DNA from: Desulfuromonadaceae bacterium
Lineage (GTDB): Bacteria > Desulfobacterota > Desulfuromonadia > Geobacterales > Pseudopelobacteraceae
Assembly: GCA_049318985.1 (NCBI GenBank)
Contig: JBMOEI010000031.1
Coordinates: forward strand, 2,417 to 34,416
Direction: 5' to 3'
Length of the DNA stretch: 32,000 nt
Below the pieces are notes generated by a model. It saw only the letters and a list, made by a program, of their open reading frames with translations, did not search any database and was not told the DNA's origin. The translations under genes were made by a program, and so were the position numbers. Positions 7,177-28,534 of the stretch are shown here, one piece after another (the stretch's first letter is position 1; each line of letters starts with the position of its first letter).

Positions 7177-7180
7177 ACAG

Positions 7181-7218
7181 CACAATAATCTAGCAGTGGC
7201 AAGACACAATAATCTAGC
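7181..7218. repeat. Two direct copies of CACAATAATCTAGC, 24 bp apart centre to centre
   Basis: Exact 14-mers at 7181..7194 and 7205..7218, in the AT-rich gap between the plus-strand terminator and the convergent hipA end. Confidence 0.6.
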
Positions 7219-7284
7219 TGGCGCATGAAATGTTCATGATGCCGTACTGATTAAGAGTGGGCTCTGACACTCTTGGTAGCGTGC

Positions 7285-8532: not shown

Positions 8533-8765
8533 GATTCGTCTCCTGGAGTTGCCCACGTACGGATACTCGCATCCAGCTCGATTCCGAGGCACTTGATGAC
8601 CTGCAGTACCTTGTTCAGGCGCACGGTCTCCTTGCCGTTTTCCAGAGCAGACAGAAAGGCATAACTTACGCCACAGACTGCAGCCGCATCTTCCAGGGTG
8701 AGGCCATCGTCTTTACGTTTCTGTTTGATGAGCCGTCCAATGTCTATTGCACTTGTAATCTTCAT
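8529..8765 (-). CDS. hipB: HipB-like XRE-family HTH antitoxin
   Basis: IGRLIKQKRKDDGLTLEDAAAVCGVSYAFLSALENGKETVRL is a Cro/C1-type HTH. There is a 4-nt overlap with hipA. Confidence 0.85.
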   Translation of the reverse strand: MKITSAIDIGRLIKQKRKDDGLTLEDAAAVCGVSYAFLSALENGKETVRLNKVLQVIKCLGIELDASIRTWATPGDES

Positions 8766-9406: not shown

Positions 9407-10336
9407 TTACCCCCAGAAAATGAGATTGTTTGCCTGATCCCTGCCGGTATCTAAATTCCACTCACCGAAACGCGCCAGAATTGTGTCGTTGCCGTTGAAT
9501 GTCCCACGCGCTATATCCGCCCATACTGTTGCTACATTGTCCACTGCCTCAGTGTAAATATCTGTATAACTCATGGTTCCGTTGGGAATCTTGAGGCCTT
9601 CAATATACTGTTTGTCTATCTGCCCGGGCAAAGGATAGACCATTCCTGAATCTGCTGCGAGATGTCGGGCAAAAGGAAATAGATGATTTCCTGCTGATGA
9701 TATTGTATCTACAATCTCATTGAACCGCTCATGCCACTTGTGAATGTCAGGAGGATTAGCGGCAAAAATATCCGGGTGGACAGCTTTCATCAAAGCACTC
9801 CAGAACGAGATAATGTCAGCATCCAGCTTATCGTCATCATCCGGTGCAGAGCATGCGCCAATACCTGATGCTAGATGGTCTGACACTCCAACCCCTCCAA
9901 GATCAAGCCTCTGGAAGATAAAGGCATCCTGGTGCATTTCACATACCCTGTGTTTCGTTTTATTCTCTTCATACGTGCCGACCTTGAGTTCGATTACCGG
10001 ATGAACCGTCATGTCTGCGGTAACATGCGAGGAGTACCCCAGCAGCCACGCCAGACATTTGTACTTCTTCTCTCCATCAATGGCTCGAAGCAACTTTGAG
10101 CCTTCCCGGACCATCGCTCCCGTGTGGGTGTAGTGCATCAGATCAGACCATTTTGCGGCATCGCTGTCATCTACAGCCAGGTACGGATAGTCAGGGCTTA
10201 CAGCTCCCAGTTCTGCAAACTTGAACCAGCGCAGGAATGCTTTTGATGCTTCTTTCGGAAAGTCAGGAATGGCAAGAAGCTTATCGGTGTTCCTGAATTC
10301 ATTAACTACCGATATATGCGCGTATGCTCCAGGCAT
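9407..10336 (-). CDS. Zinc-dependent phospholipase C-like family protein (no signal peptide)
   Basis: His/Asp pattern typical of the Zn-PLC/P1-nuclease-like superfamily: N-terminal MPGAYAHISV, GAVSPDYPY, LMHYTHTG, GYSSHVTADMTVHPVI, CEMHQDAF. The call comes from motif recall only. Confidence 0.55.
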   Translation of the reverse strand: MPGAYAHISVVNEFRNTDKLLAIPDFPKEASKAFLRWFKFAELGAVSPDYPYLAVDDSDAAKWSDLMHYTHTGAMVREGSKLLRAIDGEKKYKCLAWLLGYSSHVTADMTVHPVIELKVGTYEENKTKHRVCEMHQDAFIFQRLDLGGVGVSDHLASGIGACSAPDDDDKLDADIISFWSALMKAVHPDIFAANPPDIHKWHERFNEIVDTISSAGNHLFPFARHLAADSGMVYPLPGQIDKQYIEGLKIPNGTMSYTDIYTEAVDNVATVWADIARGTFNGNDTILARFGEWNLDTGRDQANNLIFWG

Positions 10337-11353: not shown

Positions 11354-12544
11354 TCAAATCAGGTCTCCACGAAATGCTTTATCCAGAATCGACGGCACCA
11401 TGGCATCCAGTTCGGTGGCAGTTTCGGTCTGGAGGCGTTTGAGGGAGTCAATCTTGGCTTGGAGGTTGTCCAGGTGGGTGACGATGTTGTGCTGTTCTTC
11501 AATTGACGGTAGCATAATGGGAAACTTTCTTATGGCTCCGATATTGAGATGAGGTGATGCTGAACCTTTAGAGAGCGGAACTATCTGATCTTGCTGAATA
11601 ATCGGCGAGAGCCATTGGTACAAAAGGAATTGCGGTAGAATTTTCCGGGAATCAGGGCGAACTTGCATAACTCTTTGCCCTAAGCTCATTTTATGACCTT
11701 CTTCAACAATGCCGGCTTTTCCGGTTCCTCCACCTTCTCGAACGATGATAATGTCTCCTGGTACAAGTTCTCCCCTCCGAGTTCGACGAAGGTACTCATC
11801 TTCACTTGTTCTCAAAGCTGTTTCGGGAAAAAGTTTGCCCCATCCTATATCCGGAGATCGGAGTGTTGGAATTCCCGAATCGGAATATATCGCGTTCGAG
11901 TGTAAACAATCGATTATGTCAGTGCAAAGCGATGCAAGCACTGCACTCCCATTATATTTCGACATAGAGAACAAGTTGCGGGACGTGCTGTGTAACAGCG
12001 CCTCCGTCTCCTCCACCGCATGCCGTCTGAGCCCCCGCGCCTCCTTAATCTTCGCCGTCAGCTCTTCAATCCGCGCAACAATGCACCGTTGTTCGGCCAG
12101 CGGTGGGAGGGATATTTCCATGGCAAGAAACTTCTCTTCTTTGAGGCGTACCCTGTTAGTTGTACCTTCACTGGCTGCCTTACAAAGTTCAACAAATCCT
12201 GATGTCTTGCTTAACCACTCTAGGAACTTCGGTGTAAGCCTTTCCTGATTCAAATCGAATGCCGGAAAATCATTACTGACAACCGCTCCATCAAGCATTT
12301 CAGGGACAAGACCAAAAGCACCGTTGCGGGCATCAATCCGCGAAAGTATGAACTGGCCTTGCCGGACAATGGCTCGCCGTGATGCCGTCATCTCTGTGCC
12401 AGAGACCTCACGGCGTAGCACAACACCCTTGCCCCAGAGTTTGATCGTCACTTCCCGATAAAAGGCATTTGGGTCAATAGAAACCAATTCCTCAGACTTC
12501 TTCAGCACCTCTCCAAGCGCCACCAGCGGCCACGCGCCACTCAT
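11354..12544 (-). CDS. hsdS: Type I restriction-modification specificity subunit HsdS
   Basis: Two target-recognition halves are separated by the conserved helical spacers LPPLAEQRCIVARIEELTAKIKEA and LPSIEEQHNIVTHLDNLQAKIDSL. The ATG overlaps the upstream stop (ATGA at 12541..12544). Confidence 0.9.
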   Translation of the reverse strand: MSGAWPLVALGEVLKKSEELVSIDPNAFYREVTIKLWGKGVVLRREVSGTEMTASRRAIVRQGQFILSRIDARNGAFGLVPEMLDGAVVSNDFPAFDLNQERLTPKFLEWLSKTSGFVELCKAASEGTTNRVRLKEEKFLAMEISLPPLAEQRCIVARIEELTAKIKEARGLRRHAVEETEALLHSTSRNLFSMSKYNGSAVLASLCTDIIDCLHSNAIYSDSGIPTLRSPDIGWGKLFPETALRTSEDEYLRRTRRGELVPGDIIIVREGGGTGKAGIVEEGHKMSLGQRVMQVRPDSRKILPQFLLYQWLSPIIQQDQIVPLSKGSASPHLNIGAIRKFPIMLPSIEEQHNIVTHLDNLQAKIDSLKRLQTETATELDAMVPSILDKAFRGDLI

Positions 12545-13380
12545 ACGCCCGTCATCCTGAGAAGTTCCGAGACGAAACCAACGACATCCGCCTGCATCTC
12601 CGCGTCCTCGGCCCCGGAGGCAAAAAGCGCCACCCGCATCGGTCCGAGTGCTCTTTCGTCAAGAAAATCCTCGCGAAGAATAGCGACAGCACGACGACCA
12701 GGGGCGGTTTCAATCAGGTGGCTAAAAAAAGCAGCGACGTCTTCCGTGCCGCTACCATAGTTTCTCGTCATGTAGTAAAGATCGTAGGCATCTTTGAATT
12801 TCCCGCGATTGCGGAACGCCAGCGCCTTCAGGATGACAAACGCACCTGGATTACACACGGGGATTTCACGCGATGCGGTTTCACCAAAAAGGGTCGTCCC
12901 GTCAAGCCTGACTCTAATCCGCTCACTAAATGCGATTTCAAGCCCCTCGATAATAAAAGCGGCCAGGCCCTTTTCGAGTGATTGTAATTTCCCTGGGACT
13001 GCCTCTTCATTGATCGGCGGAATAAGAAATTCTATTTTTGCTGACGGATTTCGCGTATGGGTCCAGCGCTGACGGACTTCATTCCCTTTATTACTGATGT
13101 CAGGGGTAAAACCCGAATCCCTCAAACGCTCCGCGATACCCTCGTACCGATGATCATCAAGAATTGCCAGATCAAGTCCAAGATCAAGATCCATCGTACC
13201 TACATGCGGTTCGGCTCCGATTGGGAGTGCTGTCGGAGGGATGAGGAGGCTGGGCACCAATCCTCCGACAACAACCAGATCATCCATATAATCGCCGAGT
13301 ATGGTCGCTGCCGTAAGGGTGGCGGCACGGATCAAGTCAGTCTGTTCGGGGGTATAGTCGGCGGCAGTGTGAAACGTCAT
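12541..13380 (-). CDS. AbiEii/AbiGii-family nucleotidyltransferase toxin-like protein (DUF1814-like)
   Basis: NTase-like VVVGGLVPSLL...HVGTMDLDLGLDL motif, size ~280 aa, paired with an upstream wHTH protein and overlapping it by 4 nt (13377..13380). Confidence 0.6.
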   Translation of the reverse strand: MTFHTAADYTPEQTDLIRAATLTAATILGDYMDDLVVVGGLVPSLLIPPTALPIGAEPHVGTMDLDLGLDLAILDDHRYEGIAERLRDSGFTPDISNKGNEVRQRWTHTRNPSAKIEFLIPPINEEAVPGKLQSLEKGLAAFIIEGLEIAFSERIRVRLDGTTLFGETASREIPVCNPGAFVILKALAFRNRGKFKDAYDLYYMTRNYGSGTEDVAAFFSHLIETAPGRRAVAILREDFLDERALGPMRVALFASGAEDAEMQADVVGFVSELLRMTGV

Positions 13381-14429
13381 GGGAACTCCAGATTTTTCCG
13401 CAACTCGGTAGCTGCTTCTTTAGCCCGTTCCGGGAGGGATTTCAGGTCAAGCCAGACCTGGATGCGATGAACACAAGGAATGTCGGCAACGGGTTGTATG
13501 CCGTAAAAGAGATCGGGGTCTTTCGGAATGATCAGCCAAACATTGGCTCCGGAGGTGTTTTCCCGGAAGCCGATCTGTTCCAGGATATGCTTGTCCGGCC
13601 ACTCTTTCAGATACATGGTAACAGTGCGAAACGCGGCAAACCTGGAATACAACCATGCAGCCCCCAGCCCGGTGGCGGCATGATCAACAGACAGACTTTT
13701 CAAGGTGCTGCTGATTTTCCCTTGAATCTCTTCCCCGGATCGTCCGGCCACATGGCCGCGCAGTATCTCATGCTTTGTGAAATCGTACCCTTGCTGCCAC
13801 GCATCCAGCATTACTTCTGACTTGGCGACAATGAGTTTCCCCTGATTGTCACGGGAGATAAGCTGCTGGGCTTCAAGTGATTTAACGATCCGGCTGACAA
13901 ATCCTTCCCCCAGACCTGTTTCGTCTGCCAGCTCCCGTTGCGTCCAGGCACGGTTTGTTTGATACAGCATGTGTCGGGCAATTCGCGAACTTTTCGGGGC
14001 AAAGGGATTTTCATTGCGCCCGGGGGAGATGAACTTGTTCTTTTCGCCACGGACGAAGAGACGGAGGCCGGGAGCGGTAATATCGGCATTGCCCGAGAGA
14101 TCCAGCCAGGAAACACCGGCCTCGGCGCACTTACCAATCCCGGTTTCTCCCATGAATGGTGTAACCAGCAGTCGAATATCGGAAGGTTTGGCGGGGTAGC
14201 GTATCAAATGCTCAATGCCGGCGGCAACAGAGCCAATCAGGGGTGATGACTTGTACTCAACTACGAACCGGAATCCACCTGCCTCCATAACAAGGTCTGG
14301 CCGGTATCTTTCGCTTTGCGGAGTACCTGTAAGAGGCTCGTAGTCAACCCTGTCGGCGCTAACACCGATGAGCTTCTCCAGCCGGTCTACCACCTGTTTC
14401 AACGCATTTTTCTCATGTTCAATCTTCAT
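13377..14429 (-). CDS. AbiEi-like antitoxin/transcriptional regulator with N-terminal PD-(D/E)xK-like module
   Basis: Central winged-HTH SRIARHMLYQTNRAWTQRELADETGLGEGFVSRIVKSLEAQQLI. N-terminal RPDLVMEAGGFRFVVEYKSS resembles a D...E-x-K nuclease-fold core. Genomic pairing with an AbiEii-like NTase. Confidence 0.5.
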   Translation of the reverse strand: MKIEHEKNALKQVVDRLEKLIGVSADRVDYEPLTGTPQSERYRPDLVMEAGGFRFVVEYKSSPLIGSVAAGIEHLIRYPAKPSDIRLLVTPFMGETGIGKCAEAGVSWLDLSGNADITAPGLRLFVRGEKNKFISPGRNENPFAPKSSRIARHMLYQTNRAWTQRELADETGLGEGFVSRIVKSLEAQQLISRDNQGKLIVAKSEVMLDAWQQGYDFTKHEILRGHVAGRSGEEIQGKISSTLKSLSVDHAATGLGAAWLYSRFAAFRTVTMYLKEWPDKHILEQIGFRENTSGANVWLIIPKDPDLFYGIQPVADIPCVHRIQVWLDLKSLPERAKEAATELRKNLEFP

Positions 14430-14430
14430 G

Positions 14431-14466
14431 CTTTACTTTTTACCACTACTTTACTTATTTGTAAAG
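14431..14466. promoter_or_regulatory. CTTTAC / CTTTAC / GTAAAG repeat set upstream of the AbiEi-like gene (candidate autoregulatory operator)
   Basis: CTTTAC at 14431..14436 and 14449..14454, with the inverted copy GTAAAG at 14461..14466, in the AT-rich 83-nt hsdM-abiEi gap. Confidence 0.3.
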
Positions 14467-14512
14467 GCGGTTATTTTAGTGAAGTGGCTGATCTTATTTT
14501 TGCATTTCCCTT

Positions 14513-16048
14513 TCAATCTACTACACCCTTGGCAAGTACCAGCCGGATCTCGCCCATGATCTCAAGTATTCGCTGCTCTTTCCTGACAATATCTTCTACC
14601 AGCCGCTCCGGCGGCAGATGTTCGAAGTCATCTTTGCCGGTGGGATTCTTGATGTCCAGGTTGTAGCCGTTCTCGATGATCCGCTCTACCGGCACCCGCC
14701 AGGCGTGCTCGTTCTCCTCCTTGTTGTTCCACCATGACAGGCAATCGGCAAATTCCTCGAACTGGACCGGCTGGGTCTTGGTGTAGTTCTTCCGCCCTTC
14801 CGGCAATGGCTGTTCATAGTACCAGACCTCTTTGGTCGGCCCGGAACGGTCGAAGAAAAGGAGGTTGGTGGGGATACCGGTATACGGGGCAAAAACGCCA
14901 TTGGGCAGACGCACTATGGTATGCAGGTTGAAATCTTTGATCAGTCGTTCCTTGATTCGCCCGCAGATGCCGTCGCCGAAGAGCATGCCATTGGGGACGA
15001 CCACTCCGGCTCGGCCAGGTTTGGGTTGGCGTTTGAGCTTGCGCATGATCATCTGGAGAAAGAGCAGCGTCGTCTCCGAGGTCTGCATCTCGGCGGGAAA
15101 GTTGTTGAGAATCCCTTTCTCTTCTTCACCACCAAATGGGGGATTAGTCAGGATGACATCCACTCGATCCCGGTCGCCAATCTCATTGAGCGGAAAGCGG
15201 AGGCTGTTATCCGGGTCGATTCTGGGGAATTCCAGCCCGTGCAGCAGCAGGTTCATCTGCACCAGCAGATAGGGGAGCGGCTTGGCTTCGCCGCCATAAA
15301 TGCTGCTTCCCTGGAGAATATTGCGCTCTTCAACGGTCGTGCACTGCTTCTCCAGGTGGCTGTAGGTCTCCACCAGAAAACCGCCAGTGCCGCAGGCCGG
15401 GTCAAGGATGGTTTCACCCAATTGGGGATTGAGGACATCGACCATGAAGCGGACAACCGGGCGAGGGGTATAGAATTCTCCCGCATCACCGGCTGCATCG
15501 CGCATCTCCTTGAGCATGGATTCGTAGAGGTGGCTCAGGGTGTGAATTTCGTCAGACGAAGTAAAGTGGATGCCGTTGACCTTGTTGATCACGTCCCGCA
15601 ACAGGTAGCCATTGATCATCCGGTTGATGGTGCCTTTGAAGACGGTGGCGATGACATCCCGCCGGTCGCCGCCGTTGATCCCCTGGAGGCCGCGCAGATA
15701 GGCGAACAGCCCTGCGCCCCTGGTTCCATCCGGACGGACCGCTTCATCGTTGTTGACGAAAGCTATCAATTCATCGCCGGTTATGCCGTCTTCCCGTGCG
15801 GCCCAGTCGCGCCAGCGATACGGTGCCTCAATTGCCGGTCGGAACTTCTCACCGGAAAGGATCGCTTCTTCCTCCCGAATTCGCTCCATGTCATCGAGGA
15901 ATTTGAGGAACATGATCCAAGTAAGTACGGGGAGCCGGTCGATGTCGCCGGAAAGCCCCTTGTCCTTGCGCATGATGTCGCGGGATGATTTTACGATAGA
16001 GCCAAGTTGTTGGGCGGTTGATAATGAGTTTATGGTTTTGCGTGACAT
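14513..16048 (-). CDS. hsdM: Type I restriction-modification N6-adenine DNA methyltransferase HsdM
   Basis: HsdM N-terminal domain (LPVLTWIMFLKFLDD), SAM motif I ILDPACGTGGFL, and catalytic motif IV VILTNPPFGG. Confidence 0.95.
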   Translation of the reverse strand: MSRKTINSLSTAQQLGSIVKSSRDIMRKDKGLSGDIDRLPVLTWIMFLKFLDDMERIREEEAILSGEKFRPAIEAPYRWRDWAAREDGITGDELIAFVNNDEAVRPDGTRGAGLFAYLRGLQGINGGDRRDVIATVFKGTINRMINGYLLRDVINKVNGIHFTSSDEIHTLSHLYESMLKEMRDAAGDAGEFYTPRPVVRFMVDVLNPQLGETILDPACGTGGFLVETYSHLEKQCTTVEERNILQGSSIYGGEAKPLPYLLVQMNLLLHGLEFPRIDPDNSLRFPLNEIGDRDRVDVILTNPPFGGEEEKGILNNFPAEMQTSETTLLFLQMIMRKLKRQPKPGRAGVVVPNGMLFGDGICGRIKERLIKDFNLHTIVRLPNGVFAPYTGIPTNLLFFDRSGPTKEVWYYEQPLPEGRKNYTKTQPVQFEEFADCLSWWNNKEENEHAWRVPVERIIENGYNLDIKNPTGKDDFEHLPPERLVEDIVRKEQRILEIMGEIRLVLAKGVVD

Positions 16049-16096
16049 TTATGGCTCCGAGGCGCAAATGGTGAATGAAAATTGCATGGATGTCGT

Positions 16097-17089
16097 TTAC
16101 TTTTTAGTCGCTAAATTGATAGACATAATAAAAGAGGTCACAGCTTCAGCGCTATTATCAGCAGTGGGGTCAGAATCTGGGACCAGAGTGCTTTCTACTA
16201 AAATCGAACCACCATGTAATTCAATAATTGAATTCGCAACTGCCAATCCAAGTCCTGTGCCTCCTGAGTAAGTTGTATAAAATGGTTGAAAAATCCGCCT
16301 GGAATAGATGTCGTCCTTTGGGATGTATTTGCCGATATTACTTACTTTTACAAATGCCGATGACCCAACCCGATACACATCTATTTCTATGGGATACTTC
16401 GAATTGCCAAATTGCTGGGCATTAATAATCATATTAAGAATGACTTGGCTAAGTTGGTGGGTATCACCAAATATCTCGCACTGACTCATGTGCTGATTTA
16501 ATTGGATCTCATAGCGGTTATTTGTATCATTCACCAAATTATAGGCCTCATTAACAATCTGCAAAAGATTAACTCGCGAAAAACCAACCGGTAATGCTGT
16601 GATGCTGTATATCTGCGGCATAATCGCTAAGATAAGCTTTTGTACTCCAGCCTCCAAATCTGGGAATAAGTCTACGCGATGTATCTCCGCTAACATCGGA
16701 TGTTGAGGTTGACAGTCATCAAGTCGCACAGGGAGAAGATATATTTTATCAGGAGGCATTGTTTCCATTACCTCAATGGCCTGGCGCAGTTCTTTCTGCA
16801 CTACACCTCGTTTATTAACTGCATGATTTGACATCAACGCTATGAACAAATCAGATTGTATAATTGCCTTCGTGATTTCCTGTTTCCAATTTTGCCCTGG
16901 TTGAAGAGATTCTTCATCAAACCATATATATACAAGCTTATTTAGCCTTTTGAGGACACGATAAAGCTCTCTTGCCGAGTCGATGTCTTCTCTAGCATAG
17001 CTAAGAAATATTTGTTTCCTTTCGGGTATCATCACGTGATCTGACAGACCATCTAACCTCGTGAGCATATCCTGTAAATTGTTTGCCAT
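16097..17089 (-). CDS. TIR domain fused to histidine-kinase-type HATPase_c (GHKL) domain, no DHp/H-box
   Basis: N-terminal half: KQIFLSYAREDIDSARELYRVLKRL...WFDEESLQPGQNW...DLFIALMS...VVQKELRQA is a TIR_2-type pattern with the conserved Glu (E100). C-terminal half: N-box VILNMIINAQQFG, F-box IFQPFYTT, G2-box GGTGLGLAVANSIIELHGGSILVES. No HisKA phospho-acceptor His region lies between them. Confidence 0.75.
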   Translation of the reverse strand: MANNLQDMLTRLDGLSDHVMIPERKQIFLSYAREDIDSARELYRVLKRLNKLVYIWFDEESLQPGQNWKQEITKAIIQSDLFIALMSNHAVNKRGVVQKELRQAIEVMETMPPDKIYLLPVRLDDCQPQHPMLAEIHRVDLFPDLEAGVQKLILAIMPQIYSITALPVGFSRVNLLQIVNEAYNLVNDTNNRYEIQLNQHMSQCEIFGDTHQLSQVILNMIINAQQFGNSKYPIEIDVYRVGSSAFVKVSNIGKYIPKDDIYSRRIFQPFYTTYSGGTGLGLAVANSIIELHGGSILVESTLVPDSDPTADNSAEAVTSFIMSINLATKK

Positions 17090-17158
17090 TTTTATAACCT
17101 TTCAGATTAACGGCATTATGGTTACTGGATTCCCGTTATAGACAACCTGTGTTGACAA

Positions 17159-18790
17159 TCATCGGTCGCCGCGCCAGTCGGGAGTGTGAAAGCCATCAAG
17201 GAAGCGTGAGCGAACCGCAACAAAGGAATCCTTTCCAACATTAGACCCACGTTGGGCCATGTCCTCAATTGCTTCCACGTCGTCAAGCTTGATTTCACAA
17301 AGCGTCTGCTGATTTACCCTCAGATGGCGAGCTGGACTCAAAAAACTGTCTGCTAGTTCGGTAGCCGCGTGCTCCTGTGCCGCAAAAAAAAGATCGGCGC
17401 TTGTCGGTGCCCATCCTACTTTTCCTTTGCCTAGGGACTCTGTGAAATCGGTTTCATTACACATCGTTCCGATGCTCAAGACATCAATTCGATCAAGCGG
17501 TATTTTGAGGTGACGAACCGCCTCAGCTATTGCAGGCAATACTGGATTGTTTGCCCAAATTCCGCCATCAAGATAACTCTCAACCGATATTGCATTGTCA
17601 ACTATTGCTTCATCAAAGTATGTTGGTGCGGCAGAAGATGCTAGAGCTGCATCTACGGCGGATATTGCCGCAAATGCAGTCCGGTCGCGACAGTGAGCAG
17701 TTACAATAGCCTCTGCTTCACCATGGTTTGCCCTCACAGTAGGGAGCACTAGCCTACAGAGAGAATCCTGCGTTAGTATGCGATCTCCAAACACCGATTG
17801 AAGCGTCTCTCGTAGAGTTTGAGATTCATGCTTGGATTTCAGCCAGTGGCGCAGTTTGCGGTTTTTGGGGAATATCTTAGGCCCTTGCGTTCGATAAAAG
17901 GAAAGCATTTCAGCTGGGGTTAGACCGAGGCCGAGGCCTATGGCGAGAATCGCACCTGTAGATGTACCCGCAACAAGATCGAAATGTTTTACTAATTGGT
18001 TCCCGCCACCACTCTTTATCATATCGTCCCACTTAGCGAGGACAGCAGCGGTAAAGGTGCCTCGTAGGCCGCCGCCATCAAGCGCCAGGATTCGAAATAG
18101 GCGCCCACTAGAGATACTCTCTCGTGCCAGTGGAAGTAACTTTAGCTGAGATATTATTGTGCCCACAAGCTCATCAACAACAGTGCACGTAGCAAATGCT
18201 CGATTCTGCTGTTCAGAAAGACCGTTGCGCAAACGACAAAACACAGTCTCGTCATCTCTTACGTAACCTTCAATGGCCCCACCAAACCCCGCTACTGCAA
18301 ACCCAGATTTTCCACGGGCCAAGGTTTCTTCCAATTCAGCCGGAACTCCAGCGCGAGGTTTGTTGATGTCATACCATTTCCCACCTACTGCGACGACAAC
18401 ATCACATCTTTCAGCCATCCATTGCCTCATGGGAACTAAGCTTTCATCAGGTCTGTTACAGATAGATGGAATGATCTGAACAGCAGCGTATTCACGTTGA
18501 TCTTCAATATTTGCAAGTTGTTCAGCTGTGGCAGAAAACTTCTGGGTACGAACAAAAGTAAGCGCATCCTTCCGACCGCCTGACTCAACAAACTGCTTAG
18601 CGGAATTTTCAAGCGGATCTTGGAGAGTTGGGTGGCTGCCGTGAATAATGGTACCTCCCTCCCTGAATACAGCTTGACTAAGCCTCTGAACAAATAGTTG
18701 AATCGCTTTTGCCTGTTCAATAGAAGCGTTATCGTGAATAGCCCCGGAAATATGGACTCTTATGCCAAGCAGCGGAAGACGAGTTGTCAT
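17159..18790 (-). CDS. SLOG/STALD-like (LOG-type Rossmann) domain fused to patatin-like phospholipase
   Basis: Residues ~8-215 (IRVHISGAI...REGGTIIHGSHPTLQDPL...CDVVVAVGGKW...AGVPAELEETLARGKSGFAVAGFGGA) fit the SLOG/LOG Rossmann pattern. Residues ~232-445 carry the full patatin set: oxyanion DGGGLRG (238-244), nucleophile GTSTG (Ser277), and catalytic YLDGG (Asp408). Confidence 0.75.
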   Translation of the reverse strand: MTTRLPLLGIRVHISGAIHDNASIEQAKAIQLFVQRLSQAVFREGGTIIHGSHPTLQDPLENSAKQFVESGGRKDALTFVRTQKFSATAEQLANIEDQREYAAVQIIPSICNRPDESLVPMRQWMAERCDVVVAVGGKWYDINKPRAGVPAELEETLARGKSGFAVAGFGGAIEGYVRDDETVFCRLRNGLSEQQNRAFATCTVVDELVGTIISQLKLLPLARESISSGRLFRILALDGGGLRGTFTAAVLAKWDDMIKSGGGNQLVKHFDLVAGTSTGAILAIGLGLGLTPAEMLSFYRTQGPKIFPKNRKLRHWLKSKHESQTLRETLQSVFGDRILTQDSLCRLVLPTVRANHGEAEAIVTAHCRDRTAFAAISAVDAALASSAAPTYFDEAIVDNAISVESYLDGGIWANNPVLPAIAEAVRHLKIPLDRIDVLSIGTMCNETDFTESLGKGKVGWAPTSADLFFAAQEHAATELADSFLSPARHLRVNQQTLCEIKLDDVEAIEDMAQRGSNVGKDSFVAVRSRFLDGFHTPDWRGDR

Positions 18791-18846
18791 TGCATCCTCT
18801 TTTCTTGTGGTTCAAACGTTGGGTTCGCATTCGTACTGTAGATATT

Positions 18847-19446
18847 TTACCAGCCCGCGAGCCCAGCAGCTGTCTCGATCCATCCGCCGATGTTCTGGCG
18901 TCCATTCTGTGCCGTAAAATCATAGCTCATACAGTGATTTGAAAGTTGTACGACATTGTTGTCACTTGGGGCGGTAAACCATAGATCGCTCTCCGGAATA
19001 GCGAGTGTGTAATCGTCGTATTTAATCCATTTGCCGCTCTTCCACTCGGCAAGGTAAATTCCCTTTTCAGTTCTATATACACCCATCTGCGCCAGTGGGT
19101 CAGCGCCTTTCACAGCGACTACTCCATCCTTGTTCTTTACACCATGTATATAGACTGTCAATAACCCGTTGCCCTTGATTAGGCTGCGGGCGATTTCGTA
19201 TCTGACCCAGCGCCGACTCCAAGTGTCAGTACCCGAGAGTACACAAGTCACAGAGGTATTTTTTACCCCATCTCGGAGGAAAGCCTTGAGAGAGTCATCA
19301 CTTTCTTTTTTGGAAGCTTCGAATACGCTACTATCGAAAAAACCAATGCTGGCCTGATCCTCTGCCTTGACTACCCAGCAATTGCGAACATTCCAAGCAC
19401 GCCAGACGTCGGGTACGTAGTGAAACGAAAAAAAAGTTCTTCTCAT
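18847..19446 (-). CDS. thsB: ThsB-type TIR-like protein (DUF1863/Thoeris ThsB family)
   Basis: MRRTFFSFHYVPDVWRAWNVRNCW...NTSVTCVLSGTDTWSRRWVRYEIARSLIKGN. The FFSFHY, VRN, NTSVTCVL and RRWVRYEI blocks match the ThsB hallmark blocks as I recall them from Bacillus cereus ThsB, including the catalytic Glu (here E84). RBS GGAG upstream. Confidence 0.8.
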   Translation of the reverse strand: MRRTFFSFHYVPDVWRAWNVRNCWVVKAEDQASIGFFDSSVFEASKKESDDSLKAFLRDGVKNTSVTCVLSGTDTWSRRWVRYEIARSLIKGNGLLTVYIHGVKNKDGVVAVKGADPLAQMGVYRTEKGIYLAEWKSGKWIKYDDYTLAIPESDLWFTAPSDNNVVQLSNHCMSYDFTAQNGRQNIGGWIETAAGLAGW

Positions 19447-19574
19447 TTTGTCTCCGTTATTTTCATGGGGGTATAACGTCTAAAGGGTTAGCTGTGGCGA
19501 AGCCAACTGCTTGAGGGTCTGCTGTGTAGCGTAGCGGAAACAGCAGTACCTAAGTGTTAGGCATTTCGGCAAGA

Positions 19575-20261
19575 TTATCGGGGCTCTTCACCTTCTATTC
19601 TTGCCTTTATTAATCCTGCAAATAGACTTGAAGAAGGCCAACGGAGTTCAAAACTATTTGCGGCTTCTTCAAGTGTTGTTAACAAGGATTCCGTATCATC
19701 ATAAAAAATTTCGACTGTAGTATATTTCCCATTTTCAAGAAGCTTTATACCGTAACTCGTCTCTGTATTAGCCGACTCAGTCATTCTTTTGATTGCACTT
19801 GATAATTGTGCCATATACAAATCGGCTCTTTTTTCCCCCGGCAAGTCAGCTGGTATCCATCCTTCTTTATCATCACCGTACTCGAAAGACACTCTTCTGA
19901 TTACATCATTGGCATCGTGCGGCAGAGGGTCGCACTCATAAGTGAGCTTATCATTTGTGTCTAAATTAATGAGGGTCGTAATCAATATGGGCACTTTGTG
20001 CCCTTGTTTTTCGGAGATATTTCTTGACAACAACATTTCTCTAGCAAATGGTAACAATTTTAACTTATCTTGAAACTTTCCATATTCTCTCTCATATCCT
20101 TCTTTGTGCGCGTATAAGCTCTGCATCGCAAAGGTTGCACTTCTGGTCGCCGACAGTAGCGCGGAAAAATTAAAACAAAATTCCTCACTCGCAAGTTTTA
20201 GACCGCGTAGTTCATTCAAAAAATACCTTGCCTCTTTTATTTTGTATGATGGGTACATCAC
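19575..20261 (-). CDS. Hypothetical protein (228 aa), AT-rich, first gene of the insert between hsdR and hsdM
   Basis: ORF-track entry MMYPSYKIKEARYFLNELRGL... with RBS CAGGAGAAA upstream. I recognise no motif. Confidence 0.5.
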   Translation of the reverse strand: MMYPSYKIKEARYFLNELRGLKLASEEFCFNFSALLSATRSATFAMQSLYAHKEGYEREYGKFQDKLKLLPFAREMLLSRNISEKQGHKVPILITTLINLDTNDKLTYECDPLPHDANDVIRRVSFEYGDDKEGWIPADLPGEKRADLYMAQLSSAIKRMTESANTETSYGIKLLENGKYTTVEIFYDDTESLLTTLEEAANSFELRWPSSSLFAGLIKARIEGEEPR

Positions 20262-20293
20262 TTTTTCTCCTGTGTTTGCCTAACTCATTGCTG

Positions 20294-20325
20294 ACCGTTT
20301 CACGCGCACATGCGCGTGAAACGGT
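20294..20325. promoter_or_regulatory. 32-bp near-perfect palindrome ACCGTTTCACGCGCA-CA-TGCGCGTGAAACGGT
   Basis: 15-bp perfect arms read directly from the sequence, located 33-64 nt upstream of the 228-aa gene start and ~250 nt downstream of the hsdR stop. The outer half-sites GTTTCAC/GTGAAAC equal the two halves of a canonical parS. Confidence 0.5.
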
Positions 20326-20577
20326 GATCTTCCCAGGTTTTTTTGTCTGCGCACAATGAACTACCCCGCAGCAAGCTACGAGGTATCACGACGGTAATTT
20401 ATTTTTCAACGAAGCGAGCTTCGAGGAATTTACCCGAAGAGATTAAAACGACACATCAGTTGATTAAGTTTTCAGTAAAACGGTCACCTCAAAACACATT
20501 TCGCCAACATCACACCTCTTGATATACGAATCTAATTCGCGCCAGGCGAGATTGATCGTGACATCCGTATTCCTGCA

Positions 20578-22953
20578 TTAAAACCCCGCATAGAGCAGCG
20601 TCTGTAGTTCATTCACCGCTTCCCGCAGATTTTCCGCTCCACCAAAATACCCGGCAATCTCAATCACATTCCCACGCCCAGATATTGGCGGCACTTTCAA
20701 GATGTCCGGTACCACAAATTGTGCCGTACCATGTTGGGCGTATTTCTCCAGCAGTTCTTCAAGTATGGCCCTGGCCTCGGGGCCGTAGTGATCGAAGAAA
20801 TCCTTCCGGTCATGCTTAAGGCGTTCAGCCCGCTCGCGGCGAGTTCGTAACGGCGCATTGAAGGCCAGGTGACAGAGCAGATCAAAGTGGTCAGCTTCTG
20901 GTTGCCCAACGGAGTCTGCCAGCTCATTAAAGTTGATACCACGCTCCTCAAGCTGGCGGATAACTTCGGCCCGTTCCTTTGGATTGGCCCACTGTTCTCG
21001 CATCCGAATAGCACCGGTGAACAGAGTACGAACCTTGTCAGCGGCATAGTCGCTGTATTTGACGACACGGAGCTGCTTGCCGTCTGGATCCAGTTCATAA
21101 ACCAGATGGGCGGCAATCGCCACCTGTCCGCCATCGACATAGTACTTGCGGGGTTCTTTTGTGACGTCATCAATGACAACCCCTGCCGGGCCGTAGTCAT
21201 CCTGAACGCCGCCATCTTCCACAACGGGAGCTTCCTCAATAATGGTCGTTTCGTAGGTGGCGCCACTCGTATCAATCTTCTCTTCGCTGACCAGAGCCGG
21301 ATCCCCGTCGAAATCACTATCGGCAAAGAGCCTTGTGGCACTGCCGGTATAATCGAGGATGCTGAACCAGAGCTTGCCGTAATCGTCCCTGACACGGGTG
21401 CCACGGCCAATAATCTGTTTGAACTCCGACATGGAGCCAACCACGCGGGCCAGGACGATATTTTTACAGGTAGGGGCATCGACGCCGGTGGTCAGCATCT
21501 GTGAGGTGGTAAGGATGGCTGGGGTCTCGGTCTCCAGTTCCTGAAACCTGCCGAGATGCCCACGACCTATATCGCCCTCATTCGAAGTCACCCGGCAGAC
21601 GTAATCCGGGTACTGGCTTACCAGATCCTGGTTAAGGTTGGTGAGTGCCCGTCGCATCTCGTCCGCATGATCCTGATCCACGCAAAATACGATGGTCTTG
21701 GCAAAACGGTCAGTCTTTCTCAGAAAGTCATTCAGGTGACAGGCAATAGCCTCGGTACGGGCCTTTAGAGCGACAACCCGCTCAAAATCCTTGGTCTGGT
21801 ACTCCTCGTCCGGTATCTCCCGGCCATAGCGATCCAGCTCTCCCTTGCTGGGACGCCAACCTGCAGCATCAAAGTCAGTGATAATGCGGTGGACCCGGTA
21901 CGGCGCCAGGAAACCGTCGTCTATCCCCTGCCGCAAGCTGTACTGGTAGATGGGGTTGCCAAAGTAGAGGTAGGTATCCCGGTTGTCTTCCCTGAGCGGG
22001 GTAGCGGTCATCCCCAACTGAAACGCCGGAGAGAAATACTCCAGGATCTCCCGCCAGTTGCTGTTGTCGCGGGCGCTTCCCCGGTGGCATTCATCAACTA
22101 TGATCAGGTCGAAGAAGTCCGGCCGGTACTCCTTATAGAGCCCCGGTCGCCGTTCGTCCTTGGCCAGCGACTGGTAGATGGCGAAATACATCTCACGGCT
22201 TTTGTTGGCCTCGCCATTCTCGATCTTCCAGCGGGCATCGCCGAAGGGAGCAAAGATCTTATCCTTGGGGTCATCGACCAGAATATTACGATCAGCAAGG
22301 TACAGAATTTTGGGGCGCCGATGCTCGCCGGTTGCATTCCAGCGGGCGCTCCAGAGTTTCCAACAAATCTGGAAGGCGACTACGGTTTTGCCGGTGCCGG
22401 TGGCCATGGTCAGCAGGATTCGTTTATTGTCCTGCAAAACCGACTGCACAACCCGGTTGATGGCGATTTCCTGATAATAGCGAGGACTCTTGCCGCTGTG
22501 GTGGTAATAAGGTGAAAGAATGCGTTGCGCGGATTCGGGGGAGAATGCCTGAGAGCTTTGCAGTCGCTGCCAAAGTTCCTCTGGTGGCGGGAACTCCGTC
22601 AATACTCGCTCCTGGCCGGTCATATAATCAAACTCGATGATTTCTATGCCGTTAGTGGCATAGGCAAACTTGATACCCAGAATCTCAGCGTACTCTTTAG
22701 CCTGCTGTATACCATCCCCGGCTGACAGGTAATCTGGTTTGGCCTCTACAACGGCTATGAGATAATCACGGGTATAGCGAAGCAGGTAGTCGGCCCGTTT
22801 CTGGGGACGACGCCTCACCTTGTTCCCAGCAAGAACAATACGGCCATCGGTAAAGGTAATTTGCTCGTTGATACGGTGGGGCTCGTTGTCCCAACCCGCC
22901 TCAACCAGCTTCGGCAGCACGTATTTTCGGCAGGTATCTGCTTCGTTGCTCAT
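20578..22953 (-). CDS. hsdR: Type I restriction enzyme endonuclease/translocase subunit HsdR
   Basis: N-terminal HsdR nuclease region (MSNEADTCRKYVLPKLVEAGW, ADYLL...VVEAK), Walker A LTMATGTGKT, DEAH-box IIVDECHRGS, motif III GMTATP, motif VI QIIGRGTR. Confidence 0.95.
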   Translation of the reverse strand: MSNEADTCRKYVLPKLVEAGWDNEPHRINEQITFTDGRIVLAGNKVRRRPQKRADYLLRYTRDYLIAVVEAKPDYLSAGDGIQQAKEYAEILGIKFAYATNGIEIIEFDYMTGQERVLTEFPPPEELWQRLQSSQAFSPESAQRILSPYYHHSGKSPRYYQEIAINRVVQSVLQDNKRILLTMATGTGKTVVAFQICWKLWSARWNATGEHRRPKILYLADRNILVDDPKDKIFAPFGDARWKIENGEANKSREMYFAIYQSLAKDERRPGLYKEYRPDFFDLIIVDECHRGSARDNSNWREILEYFSPAFQLGMTATPLREDNRDTYLYFGNPIYQYSLRQGIDDGFLAPYRVHRIITDFDAAGWRPSKGELDRYGREIPDEEYQTKDFERVVALKARTEAIACHLNDFLRKTDRFAKTIVFCVDQDHADEMRRALTNLNQDLVSQYPDYVCRVTSNEGDIGRGHLGRFQELETETPAILTTSQMLTTGVDAPTCKNIVLARVVGSMSEFKQIIGRGTRVRDDYGKLWFSILDYTGSATRLFADSDFDGDPALVSEEKIDTSGATYETTIIEEAPVVEDGGVQDDYGPAGVVIDDVTKEPRKYYVDGGQVAIAAHLVYELDPDGKQLRVVKYSDYAADKVRTLFTGAIRMREQWANPKERAEVIRQLEERGINFNELADSVGQPEADHFDLLCHLAFNAPLRTRRERAERLKHDRKDFFDHYGPEARAILEELLEKYAQHGTAQFVVPDILKVPPISGRGNVIEIAGYFGGAENLREAVNELQTLLYAGF

Positions 22954-23945: not shown

Positions 23946-26900
23946 TTACCTCCTCGATCCTTTGTATGGTTGCGGTCCACCGCCTTTCGGCAGCAGAGAA
24001 TTCTTGCTTTGATGTTGAAGGATTCTCCCCGTCCTCTGCAAATCTCTTTCAACACGAGTTTCAGCCGTCCTGGCAACTTGTTCAGTCATTCGAGACTCAG
24101 CTTCACGTTTAGCGGCATTCTTTTCCATTGAAGAAGTCAAAGGCCTGGCGACTGTTGCCGCGTCACCAATCAATCCAGAGGTTTCGTGCAGAGCCCCTCT
24201 ACCAACAGCTATCGTTGTAGCAGCAGTTCCCGCATTAATAGACCGACCTTCGACAAAATCGCTACTCGCTGCACTACCGGCAAGATCCTGTAATGATCTG
24301 ACCGATGTACCAACTGTTTGCCTGTTTGAATAATCTGCCTTAACCCCACCATCAGCACGAATACTCCCGGTAATTCCACCACCTGACCTGGTACTGACAA
24401 CAGCCGCCCCCTGCTGTGACGACTGAACAAACTGGTCCTCGGTAATCTCCGACCGCTGTCCGGCAATGAGATTCCCGCTCTTGTCCATCTTCCCTTGGAC
24501 TTGAGAGTAGTGCAGGTTGCCATCCTTGTCCTTGGCATACATAAGGACATTTCCGTCGAGTCCGTTGGAGAACGATCCACCGACTACCTCCATTTTGCCG
24601 GTTTTATCGTTCTTGGCATAATACCAGTCACCATTGACCATCATCTGCTTGCCGCCAGCCTGGATCATATAACTTCCGGACTTCCGTGACACATTCAGTG
24701 ACTGGTTCTCGTAGCCAGTCTTGATGAAATCACCAACCGTCTTGCGCAGCCCCTTGTCAGTAGTCGACACGTTTCGATCCAGACGCTCGATATCTGTCCC
24801 GGCCTTGCTCTGACCGAGATCAAACTTCTGCACCCGGCCACCCTGATCAACGGCAAACGACGCGAGATTGCCGTTCCGGTCGTAATCAGCCCTGTAGTCG
24901 AAGGCCTGGCCGGACAGCTTGGCGACATGGGCAGCAGCACTCTGGAATCCGGCAGAACGAAGCTGCTTCTGCAGTTCGAGTGCCTGTCCTTTGTCTCCTT
25001 TGGCAACGGTACCGGAATCAGACGAATTGACGATCCCGCCATCCATACCGACATTGACCGCACTCTTGCCGTCAACTGTCGTGAAGTTGATGTTCTGCCC
25101 CTCCATCGCCTTCTGCATCTCGGCAAAGCCCCGTTCGGTCAGGTGACCGTCCTGGTACATCTCCGGATCGTTTTTGAGTTGCGGAGCAATCCGTCCAACC
25201 AACTGATCCGCTGCAGCATGAACAAGCTGGTTGCGGGCAATCCGTCCTGAGACATCATTGCTGGTTAGCTGTTGGTAGTTGCCGTAACCGCCCCCAGCAT
25301 AGATTCCCTGGATCTTGCCTCCGGTTTCCGTTGCCACGACATGACCAGCCTCAGTACCGGCGGCAACAGGACCACCCATTTGATTAGAAAGCCCGGTAAC
25401 CTCTGATGCATGTTTGCTCTGCTGAAACTGGGCATTCATCTGCATAAGTTGTCCGGATGAGATTCCGTAGTTATCGGCAATCTTGTTCACCGCATCGGTA
25501 TTGGCAAAATCCCCCAGGGCTGTAACTTCCGAGCGCATGGCATTAAACTCCCGCCAGTTCCCATTGAACCCGAGAGACCTGGCAGCGGCATATGCTCCCA
25601 TTTCACCCTGCAATTGCCCGACACTCTTGTCCATATTGGCAGTCAGGAAATCTGAATAGTTTTCACCGGAGCCAAAGACATTTGCCAAGGCCCGGTCGTT
25701 GGCAACTCCCATATTCGCGAAGGCCTGAGTGTCGCCGCCGTAACTGCCTGAAACTACATCTTTGGTAGCAGCCGACCTGTCGAGTCCCAGTCGGCCATCA
25801 AATGATTTCAACTCGTAGGCTGATGACAGACCACCTTCACGCATTGCCCTGCCGCTGCCGCCGAAACCGATTGATCTGCCAATCTCGCTATCAGCGGATA
25901 TCCGGCTCGAAGCCTCCATGCCGAAGTCCCGGATCATATCGCTCGTCGCCGTGGTTTTACCAGACATGCTGACCAGCGACTGTGCCTGCCTGGCTTGGAA
26001 GCTATGCTCATTGCTCCAGGCCTGGGTCGGCATAGCAGTAACATTACGCTGCATGGCTGACGCTCTACCGGCGGGATCTTCAACCTCATGTGTTGCCCGG
26101 TTGCCTGCGGACTGAACCTGGCTGACCATCCCTCCGGCCATCATCGCCATGGCATGACCGCCGAACTTGATCAACATACCGGTAATAACCGTCGCCAGCA
26201 TCATTCCACTCATCCGAAGCGTACCAAACATCCCAAGTATCTTTACCGTCTGGTCAGGAAAGAAGTAGAGGGCATCCATACCCAGCTTGTTCTGCCGGAC
26301 TATCTCATAAGCCCGATTAGCATAGTCCACGGCAAACTGGTGAACAATGGCATCGGTGACACCCCATGCAGTCAACCAAATGAAGAAGCCGGCGATGATC
26401 CCGACCGCCTTTCCGATCAGCGGTGTGGGAATGAAGAGCGCCAGGAATGGCAGCAATCCAACAGCGATGGCAGTAAGTGCCGCTTTCAGGATCGGCAACC
26501 ATTCGTTGGCCGACTTCATGGCACCGGAAGCGCTGAGCAGGAATTGGTAATTGGTGGCACCGGCAGCATTACCACTACGGAAGATCTCCTCCAGTCGCTG
26601 GGAGACGTAGGCCTGCTTCAGAAAATCGTCAATGCTTGCCGCTCCCAGACCGATACCGGTATTAACATTGTTCAGTACCGTCTTGCACTGGATCATGGCT
26701 GCAGCATCGGTTACGTCATAGCCAAGATTGGCACAGACCGACTGGATGTTCTTTTCAAGATTGGCCGGGGTGAGCGCCGCTTTGATGCTGGTCCAGGAGT
26801 CGGTACAGGTAAGCGTCTGCCCCTGTGGATTTGCTACATCGTAATAAACCGTCCAGATGGCCGGATTGACCGCCTTGTCCAGTGAACCGACAAAATTGGT

Positions 26901-27545
26901 GGTCGTTTTGCGCAGTTCATCCACGGTGAGGTTGGCATTGGGATTCATCAGTGCATAGGATACGCAATCCTTGACGTAACGCCGCATGGAGGCGTCCAGA
27001 TTACTGTCCACCGCCGACAGTGGAATGCTTGTAAGCTGGGCGAGACCCAAAAAACCTTTGCCGCCAGCCTGGGTCTGGTAATTCAATGGATCTCCGGCAG
27101 TGGTGACAATATCCACTAAACCGCGTTCGATCTTGTTCAGGATGCCGGTCACCGCTACCACACCATCCGGAATGCCGCCGACCGCCTGATTCTTGTTAAA
27201 GACCGGATCATAGACATGGATGGTTCCCTTGGGGACAACCAGAGCCAGGTACACCATGATGCCGATCATGGTCGGCACGATCCAGGTCATGACCGAACCG
27301 TTGGCGGTTCCCAGCGACTTGGCGAATACCGTCACCCCTCCGAAAAAGAGTCCGGCAGCGATGACCACGAAGTAGAGCGACTTGTAGGCGTTGTCGCCGA
27401 AGATCAGCGCCAGTTTGCTGAAGGCATTCACCACCGCGTCGTGACCACCCCAGACATAGAATTCCATATCCAGGGCCAGTGCCATGGTGGGGATGAGTAC
27501 CAACAGTAGTGTGAGGCCGAGCCTAGATACGGTCCGTATCGACAT
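23946..27545 (-). CDS. traG: F-type conjugal transfer protein TraG (mating-pair stabilisation), TraG_N domain plus long Gly/Ser/Ala/Gln-rich C-terminal region
   Basis: 1199 aa. Signal-like N-terminus followed by multiple TM helices across residues ~50-480 (e.g. LPILKAALTAIAVGLLPFLALFIPTPLIGKAVGIIAGFFIWLTAWGV). Size and context next to TraU/TrbC/TrbI fit TraG. Confidence 0.75.
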   Translation of the reverse strand: MSIRTVSRLGLTLLLVLIPTMALALDMEFYVWGGHDAVVNAFSKLALIFGDNAYKSLYFVVIAAGLFFGGVTVFAKSLGTANGSVMTWIVPTMIGIMVYLALVVPKGTIHVYDPVFNKNQAVGGIPDGVVAVTGILNKIERGLVDIVTTAGDPLNYQTQAGGKGFLGLAQLTSIPLSAVDSNLDASMRRYVKDCVSYALMNPNANLTVDELRKTTTNFVGSLDKAVNPAIWTVYYDVANPQGQTLTCTDSWTSIKAALTPANLEKNIQSVCANLGYDVTDAAAMIQCKTVLNNVNTGIGLGAASIDDFLKQAYVSQRLEEIFRSGNAAGATNYQFLLSASGAMKSANEWLPILKAALTAIAVGLLPFLALFIPTPLIGKAVGIIAGFFIWLTAWGVTDAIVHQFAVDYANRAYEIVRQNKLGMDALYFFPDQTVKILGMFGTLRMSGMMLATVITGMLIKFGGHAMAMMAGGMVSQVQSAGNRATHEVEDPAGRASAMQRNVTAMPTQAWSNEHSFQARQAQSLVSMSGKTTATSDMIRDFGMEASSRISADSEIGRSIGFGGSGRAMREGGLSSAYELKSFDGRLGLDRSAATKDVVSGSYGGDTQAFANMGVANDRALANVFGSGENYSDFLTANMDKSVGQLQGEMGAYAAARSLGFNGNWREFNAMRSEVTALGDFANTDAVNKIADNYGISSGQLMQMNAQFQQSKHASEVTGLSNQMGGPVAAGTEAGHVVATETGGKIQGIYAGGGYGNYQQLTSNDVSGRIARNQLVHAAADQLVGRIAPQLKNDPEMYQDGHLTERGFAEMQKAMEGQNINFTTVDGKSAVNVGMDGGIVNSSDSGTVAKGDKGQALELQKQLRSAGFQSAAAHVAKLSGQAFDYRADYDRNGNLASFAVDQGGRVQKFDLGQSKAGTDIERLDRNVSTTDKGLRKTVGDFIKTGYENQSLNVSRKSGSYMIQAGGKQMMVNGDWYYAKNDKTGKMEVVGGSFSNGLDGNVLMYAKDKDGNLHYSQVQGKMDKSGNLIAGQRSEITEDQFVQSSQQGAAVVSTRSGGGITGSIRADGGVKADYSNRQTVGTSVRSLQDLAGSAASSDFVEGRSINAGTAATTIAVGRGALHETSGLIGDAATVARPLTSSMEKNAAKREAESRMTEQVARTAETRVERDLQRTGRILQHQSKNSLLPKGGGPQPYKGSRR

Positions 27546-28263: not shown

Positions 28264-28271
28264 GACGCCCC

Positions 28272-28523: not shown

Positions 28524-28534
28524 GGCGGCTCCTT

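Follow-up and report, generated by a model that had tools for sequence, protein, structure and literature searches.

We analysed a stretch of 32,000 nucleotides (hereafter the window) from a Desulfuromonadaceae bacterium (GenBank assembly GCA_049318985.1, contig JBMOEI010000031.1, positions 2,417 to 34,416 of the forward strand), in which an open reading frame (ORF) encodes a SLOG sensor domain fused to a patatin phospholipase. Next to it lies thsB, a gene for a TIR protein. The two genes probably form a Thoeris-family anti-phage module with a TIR-gated lipase, carried as cargo in a type I restriction-modification (R-M) operon on a conjugative element. The features of the module are as follows, in window positions.

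17170-19455, no strand assigned: mobile two-gene cassette (thsB and the SLOG-patatin gene), delimited by blastn against Desulfocapsa contig L001
18847-19446, minus strand: thsB, 199-aa TIR protein, predicted infection sensor and signal synthase (Pfam, PADLOC)
18791-18846, minus strand: intergenic spacer from thsB to the effector gene, 56 bp, with AAGAGGA just upstream of the ATG
17159-18790, minus strand: SLOG-patatin effector gene, 543 aa plus stop codon, full length against more than 100 homologues
18125-18790, minus strand: N-terminal SLOG sensor domain (aa 1-222), type-III-Thoeris-like subclass (AlphaFold2 model, Foldseek, profile, hhalign)
17162-18106, minus strand: CapV/CapE-like patatin phospholipase module (aa 229-543; Pfam, NCBIfam, PADLOC, PDB, Foldseek)
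17960-17962, minus strand: codon of the predicted catalytic nucleophile Ser277 (GTSTG), invariant in 37 homologues, equivalent to AbCapV S58 in the G-x-S-x-G box
17567-17569, minus strand: codon of the predicted catalytic Asp408 (DGG), invariant in 37 homologues, equivalent to AbCapV D192 in the D-G-[A/G] motif

The neighbouring ThsB gene is the strongest evidence that the lipase is gated by a TIR protein. It was not mentioned in the original prediction, a note made from the letters of the window, whose coordinates left out the partner gene at 18847-19446. thsB stands 56 bp upstream of the effector gene on the same strand, and a scan found no terminator-like site between the two. Its product matches ThsB_TIR of Pfam (E 6.1e-25; 88 bits, cut-off 21.2) and ThsB of PADLOC (E 1.6e-53), and is identical at 75 of 105 positions (71%) to the TIR protein of the P. 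veronii R4 "SLOG Patatin" operon and at 49 of 99 to the type I protein BcThsB. Its Glu84 (in WVRYEI) aligns with E85 of BcThsB, and the E85Q exchange in BcThsB abolishes defence. Moreover, thsB and the SLOG-patatin gene have been transferred as one unit: blastn of the window against the Desulfocapsa contig gave a single block, 17170-19455, with 91.6% identity over 2,286 bp, which ends at both gene boundaries. The GC content of the cassette is 48-49%, that of the two flanking genes about 40% and that of the R-M genes about 55%.

The pairing is conserved far beyond the window. We compared 20 informative loci, 14 of them from species-representative genomes, four from independent contigs and two on plasmids. 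In 18 a TIR gene adjoins the lipase; the other two are a solitary copy flanked by insertion sequence (IS) genes (L009) and a frameshifted copy (L014). The TIR-linked loci span Desulfobacterota, Chlorobiota, Nitrospirota, Campylobacterota, Beta- and Gammaproteobacteria, and include plasmids. Relative to the window the effectors in these loci are 62-71% identical and the adjacent ThsB proteins 32-41%; a conserved effector with a diversifying sensor has been described for Thoeris by Ofir et al. No cGAS/DncV-like nucleotidyltransferase (CD-NTase) was found among the larger ORFs of the window or in the Pfam- or RefSeq-annotated loci that were checked. Against plasmids, megablast of the region gave no match, and tblastn retrieved 13 full-length homologues, 12 from Enterobacterales and one from Cupriavidus. 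The loci of Achromobacter insuavis (L003) and Stenotrophomonas sp. MYb238 (L007) share the same coordinates and the same identities for ThsB, lipase, ThcB4 and ThcA, which, in hosts of different bacterial orders, suggests a very recent horizontal transfer of the whole locus. Positions 2430-8153 of a Nitrospira metagenome-assembled genome (L011, DATFDJ010000117.1) are dense in TIR genes and hold five of them, the SLOG-patatin gene and a stand-alone 270-aa SLOG cluster 2 protein that is 28% identical to the N-domain of the lipase, and in L013 a stand-alone SLOG ORF lies just upstream of the lipase gene.

The effector ORF runs from ATG to stop on the minus strand at 17159-18790 and encodes 543 aa. 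An identical protein, flanked by the same genes, occurs in metagenome contig SRR30676220. A search returned over 1,000 homologues, the best 120 of which are full length, share 66-93% identity and come from many phyla; most of these carry precomputed matches to PF18163 (SLOG cluster 2) and PF01734. All motifs quoted in the original prediction stand at the residues given, both in the patatin half (GTSTG at 275-279 with Ser277, DGG at 408-410 with Asp408, GGGLRG at 239-244) and in the N-domain (ISGAI at 14-18, GGTIIHG at 45-51, VAVGGKW at 133-139, GFGGA at 168-172). Conservation among close homologues was judged on an alignment of 37 sequences, in which S277, D408, G239-G241, R243 and G244 of the patatin half are invariant, as are R11, G16, G45, H50-G51-S52-H53, R99, R122, W124, D130, G136-G137, G148, E152 and G171 of the N-domain. 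The agreement with these motifs is far beyond chance. The prediction of a cytoplasmic protein with neither signal peptide nor transmembrane segment agrees with a crude hydropathy scan, made with no dedicated predictor. The sole hydrophobic 19-mer (272-290, mean Kyte-Doolittle value 1.76) corresponds, in the patatin fold, to strand, nucleophile elbow and helix. The central claim of that prediction, a SLOG sensor fused to an intact patatin lipase, is borne out by the fold model, the Pfam Patatin match and the invariant dyad.

The sensor half required the most careful treatment. On the protein's own sequence the Pfam SLOG models stay below threshold (LD_cluster2 20.6 bits against 25.3, STALD 17.8 against 24), and the assignment was therefore tested by structure, by sequence profile and by modularity; a direct sequence search of the N-domain against the PDB gave no match. 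The AlphaFold2 model of residues 1-228, built with 36 homologues, has a predicted local distance difference test (pLDDT) score of 92.9 and a predicted template modelling (pTM) score of 0.90, and its strands and helices alternate in a Rossmann-like manner. The top Foldseek match in the PDB is the SLOG domain of BcThsA with 3' cyclic ADP-ribose (3'cADPR; 7uxs, E 2.2e-8, template modelling (TM) scores 0.61/0.70), followed by all other ThsA structures and then by LOG, DprA and the ADP-ribose (ADPR)-binding domain of TRPM2. Structure prediction had been proposed as the check on the SLOG fold, and the N-domain passes it, with the ThsA SLOG as best match ahead of DprA. A family profile of 33 diverse N-domains (25-59% identity) also retrieves ThsA by sequence (SeThsA E 6e-7; EcThsA and BcThsA about 2e-3). 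These divergent domains all keep G51, R122, G136, G137 and G171, and almost all of them keep H50, P54, G148 and E152.

The contacts of BcThsA with 3'cADPR published by Manik et al. were mapped onto the SLOG-patatin protein. R371 corresponds to R122 (invariant in the family), G399 to G148 and E403 to E152 (both near-invariant), G289 to G16 (invariant among close homologues), S290 to A17 (Ser in many homologues) and K388 to W139, which adjoins the conserved K138, while the adenine-stacking side (L326) aligns to the family-specific H50-G-S-H-P54 loop. The mapping indicates that the phosphate and ribose core of the SLOG pocket is kept and that the base side differs. An exhaustive search with the N-domain only gave 231 representative proteins. 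Among the best 150 of these, the patatin module is found in 51, and about 29 consist of the SLOG domain by itself. In others the domain is joined to TIR, to EF-G domains IV/C or to C-terminal regions with no annotation, and a single protein has the tandem order SLOG-SLOG-patatin. Such modularity is what would be expected of a portable signal receiver. In the set P0122, P0231, P0259 and P0265 the fusions are the tandem SLOG-SLOG-patatin protein of 795 aa, SLOG with EF-G IV/C (547 aa), SLOG-TIR (530 aa) and TIR-SLOG (623 aa). In a PF18163 scan of ten N-domain relatives nine score 42-78 bits and the tenth 26, and the window protein scores 20.6 against the threshold of 25.3. The STALD label given to the sensor in the original prediction has to be abandoned, as the protein misses the STALD cut-off, its homologues carry PF18163, and its closest characterised relative is ThcA.

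The C-terminal half matches Pfam Patatin (PF01734) over residues 235-421 (E 1.4e-26, 94.3 bits against a threshold of 27.7). By itself (residues 232-504) it also passes NCBIfam CBASS_lipase (NF041079) with 207.3 bits against 200, named after the cyclic oligonucleotide-based antiphage signalling system (CBASS), and it matches the PADLOC phospholipase effector (E 4e-77), where the alignment takes in profile positions 5-317 of 331. By sequence its nearest PDB entries are CapV structures (E about 4e-36), and Foldseek on the full-length model ranks the CapV and CapE filament structures first, with TM scores on the target of 0.66-0.73. It had been claimed that CBASS patatin effectors are activated through other sensor domains; this is incorrect, since CapV, which has no sensor domain, binds cyclic GMP-AMP (cGAMP) inside the lipase domain itself, through F147, K149, D159, E207 and R279 (PMC12480259). 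In the HMMER alignment with AbCapV three of these contacts are replaced (F147 by A361, K149 by V363, D159 by F373), E207 is kept as E423, and R279 is unaligned. With three of the four alignable contacts replaced, the CapV nucleotide site is for the most part not kept in the SLOG-patatin protein.

We propose that upon phage infection the ThsB TIR enzyme would, through Glu84, convert NAD+ into an ADP-ribose-derived signal. The signal would bind in the SLOG pocket formed by R122, K138/W139, G148, E152, G16 and the H50-G-S-H-P54 loop. Binding is expected to shift the oligomeric state, most likely to filaments as in ThsA, CapV and CapE, and to open the lipid pocket of the patatin domain. The Ser277/Asp408 dyad could then hydrolyse membrane phospholipids, and the infected cell would die or stop growing before progeny release.

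The nature of the signal may be approached through type III Thoeris, a ThcA SLOG effector with several TIR proteins, ThcB1-4, credited in the literature to van den Berg et al. (2024); a review sets the type III SLOG class apart from STALD. On the IncHI1B plasmid of E. coli ATCC 98082 (L023, NZ_CP034659.1, 204904-211578) and on an IncF plasmid of K. variicola (L024, NZ_CP013986.1) the "CBASS" lipase lies among four to five TIR genes. Two neighbours of the lipase in these plasmid loci pass the NCBIfam type III equivalogs (ThcB4 452 bits against 220, ThcA 252.5 against 110), and so do those in an Advenella locus. RefSeq names the lipase of both plasmids "CBASS cGAMP-activated phospholipase" despite the type III Thoeris locus, on what are conjugative Enterobacterales plasmids. 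ThcB4 and ThcA stand immediately downstream of the lipase in 8 of the 20 loci (L003-L007, L012, L023, L024) and in one divergent locus besides; neither gave a match in the window or at the remaining minimal loci of two genes. Against NCBIfam ThcA, whose cut-off is 110, the N-domain of the window protein reaches 20.7 bits. The comparison of its family with ThcA by hhalign gives 99.0% probability (E 5.4e-18, 157 columns), and the two have the motifs GxHP, MR, GG, GVxxE and GG in common. This match and these motifs place the sensor in the type III SLOG class.

An argument of Yirmiya et al. (bioRxiv 10.64898/2025.12.03.692087) is that, where one Thoeris operon has two effectors, both respond to the same signal. 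Because the lipase often stands beside ThcB4 and ThcA, and its sensor is closest to ThcA, the activating signal is probably the type III Thoeris molecule rather than 3'cADPR. An attempt to derive the signal from the TIR cluster in Table S1 of Yirmiya et al. was abandoned, because one TIR cluster makes different molecules. We further put forward, as a tentative idea, that the SLOG-patatin protein may be the membrane-destroying executioner of the type III Thoeris class, which would read the TIR product through a ThcA-like GxHP pocket, with the window as its minimal two-gene form. If this is true, activation of the lipase would offer a direct enzymatic read-out for finding the type III signal, and it would explain killing by loci whose sole named effector is a bare SLOG protein.

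The architecture has already been anticipated in print, and the idea behind the original prediction is thus correct but not new. Yirmiya et al. (December 2025, bioRxiv 10.64898/2025.12.03.692087, Tables S1/S2) include "SLOG Patatin", with no type number, in a set of 29 putative Thoeris effector types. That study also supplies one of several points that weigh against a TIR-gated defence module: two SLOG Patatin operons, from P. veronii R4 and a metagenomic scaffold, did not protect E. coli MG1655 from any of 12 phages. The negatives were tested once, and 15 of the 30 candidate operons were positive overall. A literature search found no later validation of SLOG Patatin. Across the SLOG-patatin family the signal, its binding and the lipase activity are predictions. 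The SLOG scores of the protein's own sequence are sub-threshold, and the mapping of ThsA residues is a weak sequence alignment that places K388 on W139, not on K138. The adenine side of the pocket is unlike that of ThsA and does not allow the ligand to be named. Confidence in the full-length model is moderate for the patatin half, with a mean pLDDT of 77 and several loops below 50. Finally, a consensus scan for promoters and terminators gave nothing above shuffled expectation, and no promoter was detected.

The two genes could also be uncoupled neighbours, with ThsB an NAD+-depleting TIR protein and the lipase's SLOG domain a sensor of an endogenous nucleotide or metabolite (e.g., NAD+ or ADPR levels), a LOG-like enzyme or a constitutive scaffold for oligomerisation; we regard this as improbable. 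R122 and E152 correspond to positions with a catalytic role in LOG enzymes (PGGxGTxxE motif), and LOG structures occur among the fold matches; the closest fold match, however, is the ligand-binding, non-catalytic SLOG of ThsA. Some bacterial TIR proteins are NADase effectors and not signal makers, and in type IX Thoeris the SLOG effector encoded alongside is not necessarily activated by the TIR product 3'cADPR (bioRxiv 10.64898/2025.12.03.692087). The window ThsB, on the other hand, is a short stand-alone TIR protein of the ThsB family and not an effector-type fusion, and the tight, phylum-spanning adjacency of the TIR gene together with the co-transfer of the two genes is the signature that defines signalling Thoeris systems.

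The proposed TIR-gated module is embedded in the following surroundings.

20578-22953, minus strand: hsdR, type I R-M; the genes down to hsdS follow in the direction of transcription
19575-20261, minus strand: orf228, GTG start, no match in Pfam, PADLOC or NCBIfam
16097-17089, minus strand: TIR_2 and HATPase_c fusion, 330 aa, 69 bp downstream of the lipase gene, no HisKA domain
14513-16048, minus strand: hsdM, type I R-M
13377-14429, minus strand: winged helix-turn-helix (wHTH) protein, first half of an AbiE-like pair
12541-13380, minus strand: AbiEii, second half of the pair
11354-12544, minus strand: hsdS, type I R-M
9407-10336, minus strand: zinc-dependent phospholipase C family protein
7285-8592, minus strand: HipA-family kinase toxin
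2627-3457, minus strand: ParB
23946-31598, minus strand: F-type conjugation genes TraG_N, TrbC and TraU

The type I R-M operon (11354-22953, minus strand) is broken twice by defence cargo: the Thoeris cassette with its flanking genes lies between hsdR and hsdM, and the wHTH/AbiEii pair between hsdM and hsdS. In locus L017 hsdM lies two genes upstream of ThsB and the lipase. The F-type transfer genes, ParB and HipA in the window point to a conjugative plasmid or an integrative and conjugative element that carries defence cargo.

This setting invites the view that the module serves the conjugative element itself, in addiction, exclusion or inter-element conflict, or that it has no defence function at all. 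The homologues are common on conjugative plasmids, the two cloned operons gave no phage defence, and, of the other copies, L014 has a frameshift and L009 stands alone between IS genes. Yet defence islands typically reside on mobile elements, and the cassette is embedded among bona fide defence genes, namely, within the window, the type I R-M genes and the AbiE-like pair, and at other loci type III Thoeris genes. The identity of 66-93% across phyla, with invariant catalytic residues, indicates selection on function. We therefore give a role outside anti-phage defence little credence.

Two genes that flank the cassette were considered in connection with the proposed module. The TIR-HATPase_c gene (16097-17089) was rejected as a system member: apart from the window's duplicate contig, no other SLOG-patatin locus contains it, its GC content is 40%, and its homologues stand in unrelated neighbourhoods that have no SLOG gene. 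The fusion of TIR_2 with HATPase_c is rare, with about eight protein clusters that have both domains among 434 matches, and its neighbourhoods elsewhere are varied. The gene may be a self-contained TIR system of its own or serve as an accessory sensor; the latter role may apply, since extra flanking TIR genes are common in other loci. We also considered whether orf228 and the TIR-HATPase_c gene are an older pair split by the cassette, given their equal GC content of 40%, and dropped this, as no orf228 homologue was found next to TIR-HATPase homologues. A gene identical to orf228 on contig L022 has a weak precomputed match to PF26900 (Phage_lambda_Ea47). Farther away in the window, a 170-aa ORF (5747-6259, plus strand) matches short parts of PADLOC models for reverse transcriptases associated with defence (RT_UG29 E 1e-12; RTasDnaG-like E 6e-11), which is probably a small shared domain rather than a reverse transcriptase.

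That the protein is instead an orphan CBASS effector, a CapV-type lipase activated by cGAMP or another cyclic oligonucleotide with the N-domain as an accessory, is highly improbable: the patatin half does pass the CBASS_lipase cut-off and match the PADLOC CBASS effectors, homologues are annotated "CBASS cGAMP-activated phospholipase" and the closest solved structures are CapV and CapE, but a TIR gene takes the place of a CD-NTase among the ORFs and loci checked, most alignable cGAMP contacts are replaced, and a conserved 222-aa SLOG domain is present that CapV lacks, so that this reading is largely refuted by gene context. The RefSeq label "CBASS cGAMP-activated phospholipase" is very likely wrong for SLOG-patatin proteins. 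As the NF041079 cut-off of 200 is passed by the lipase half alone (207.3 bits in the window, 220.4 bits for 5001-6617 of the E. coli plasmid locus L023), the NCBI annotation pipeline PGAP names TIR-associated proteins as CBASS, and this naming is probably a systematic mis-annotation. It is probable that many proteins with this label are Thoeris effectors, also those on clinical Enterobacterales plasmids. The plasmid loci of E. coli and Klebsiella are host-matched versions of the system that failed when taken from Pseudomonas and a metagenome.

Compared with known systems, the window pair has the features by which Thoeris is recognised, i.e., a stand-alone TIR gene, a conserved Glu, a sensor joined to a toxic domain, and linkage across genomes. 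It does not differ in kind from the SLOG Patatin type of Yirmiya et al., which has the same two genes, a ThsB-type TIR and a SLOG-patatin effector; the window copy is distinguished by its place between hsdR and hsdM on a conjugative element, where it is flanked by two unrelated genes of 40% GC. With type III Thoeris it shares the SLOG subclass of ThcA; ThcA, however, is a bare SLOG protein with no enzymatic domain, to which the window protein adds a lipase, and neither ThcA nor ThcB4 is found in the window. Type I ThsA, a SIR2-SLOG NADase activated by 3'cADPR, follows the same logic of a TIR signal, a SLOG sensor and a fused toxic enzyme. Structurally the N-domain resembles ThsA most closely, and the ThsA diphosphate and ribose contacts R371, G399, E403 and G289 have conserved equivalents. 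The window effector differs from ThsA in being a lipase and not a SIR2 protein (no SIR2 match), in its reversed order with the SLOG domain at the N-terminus, in missing the STALD threshold, and in the HGSHP loop that replaces the adenine-stacking side. With CapV and CapE it has in common the patatin fold, the Ser-Asp dyad and the GGGxRG loop, and it covers nearly the whole CapV profile; by analogy, ligand-induced filament activation is a plausible common principle. Unlike CapV and CapE, it has an added SLOG domain, three of four alignable cGAMP contacts replaced, and a TIR protein as partner in place of a CD-NTase. If the proposed mechanism is true, a CBASS-type lipase has been re-wired to TIR signalling by the addition of a sensor domain, which would make the SLOG-patatin protein an example of the recombination of immune modules.

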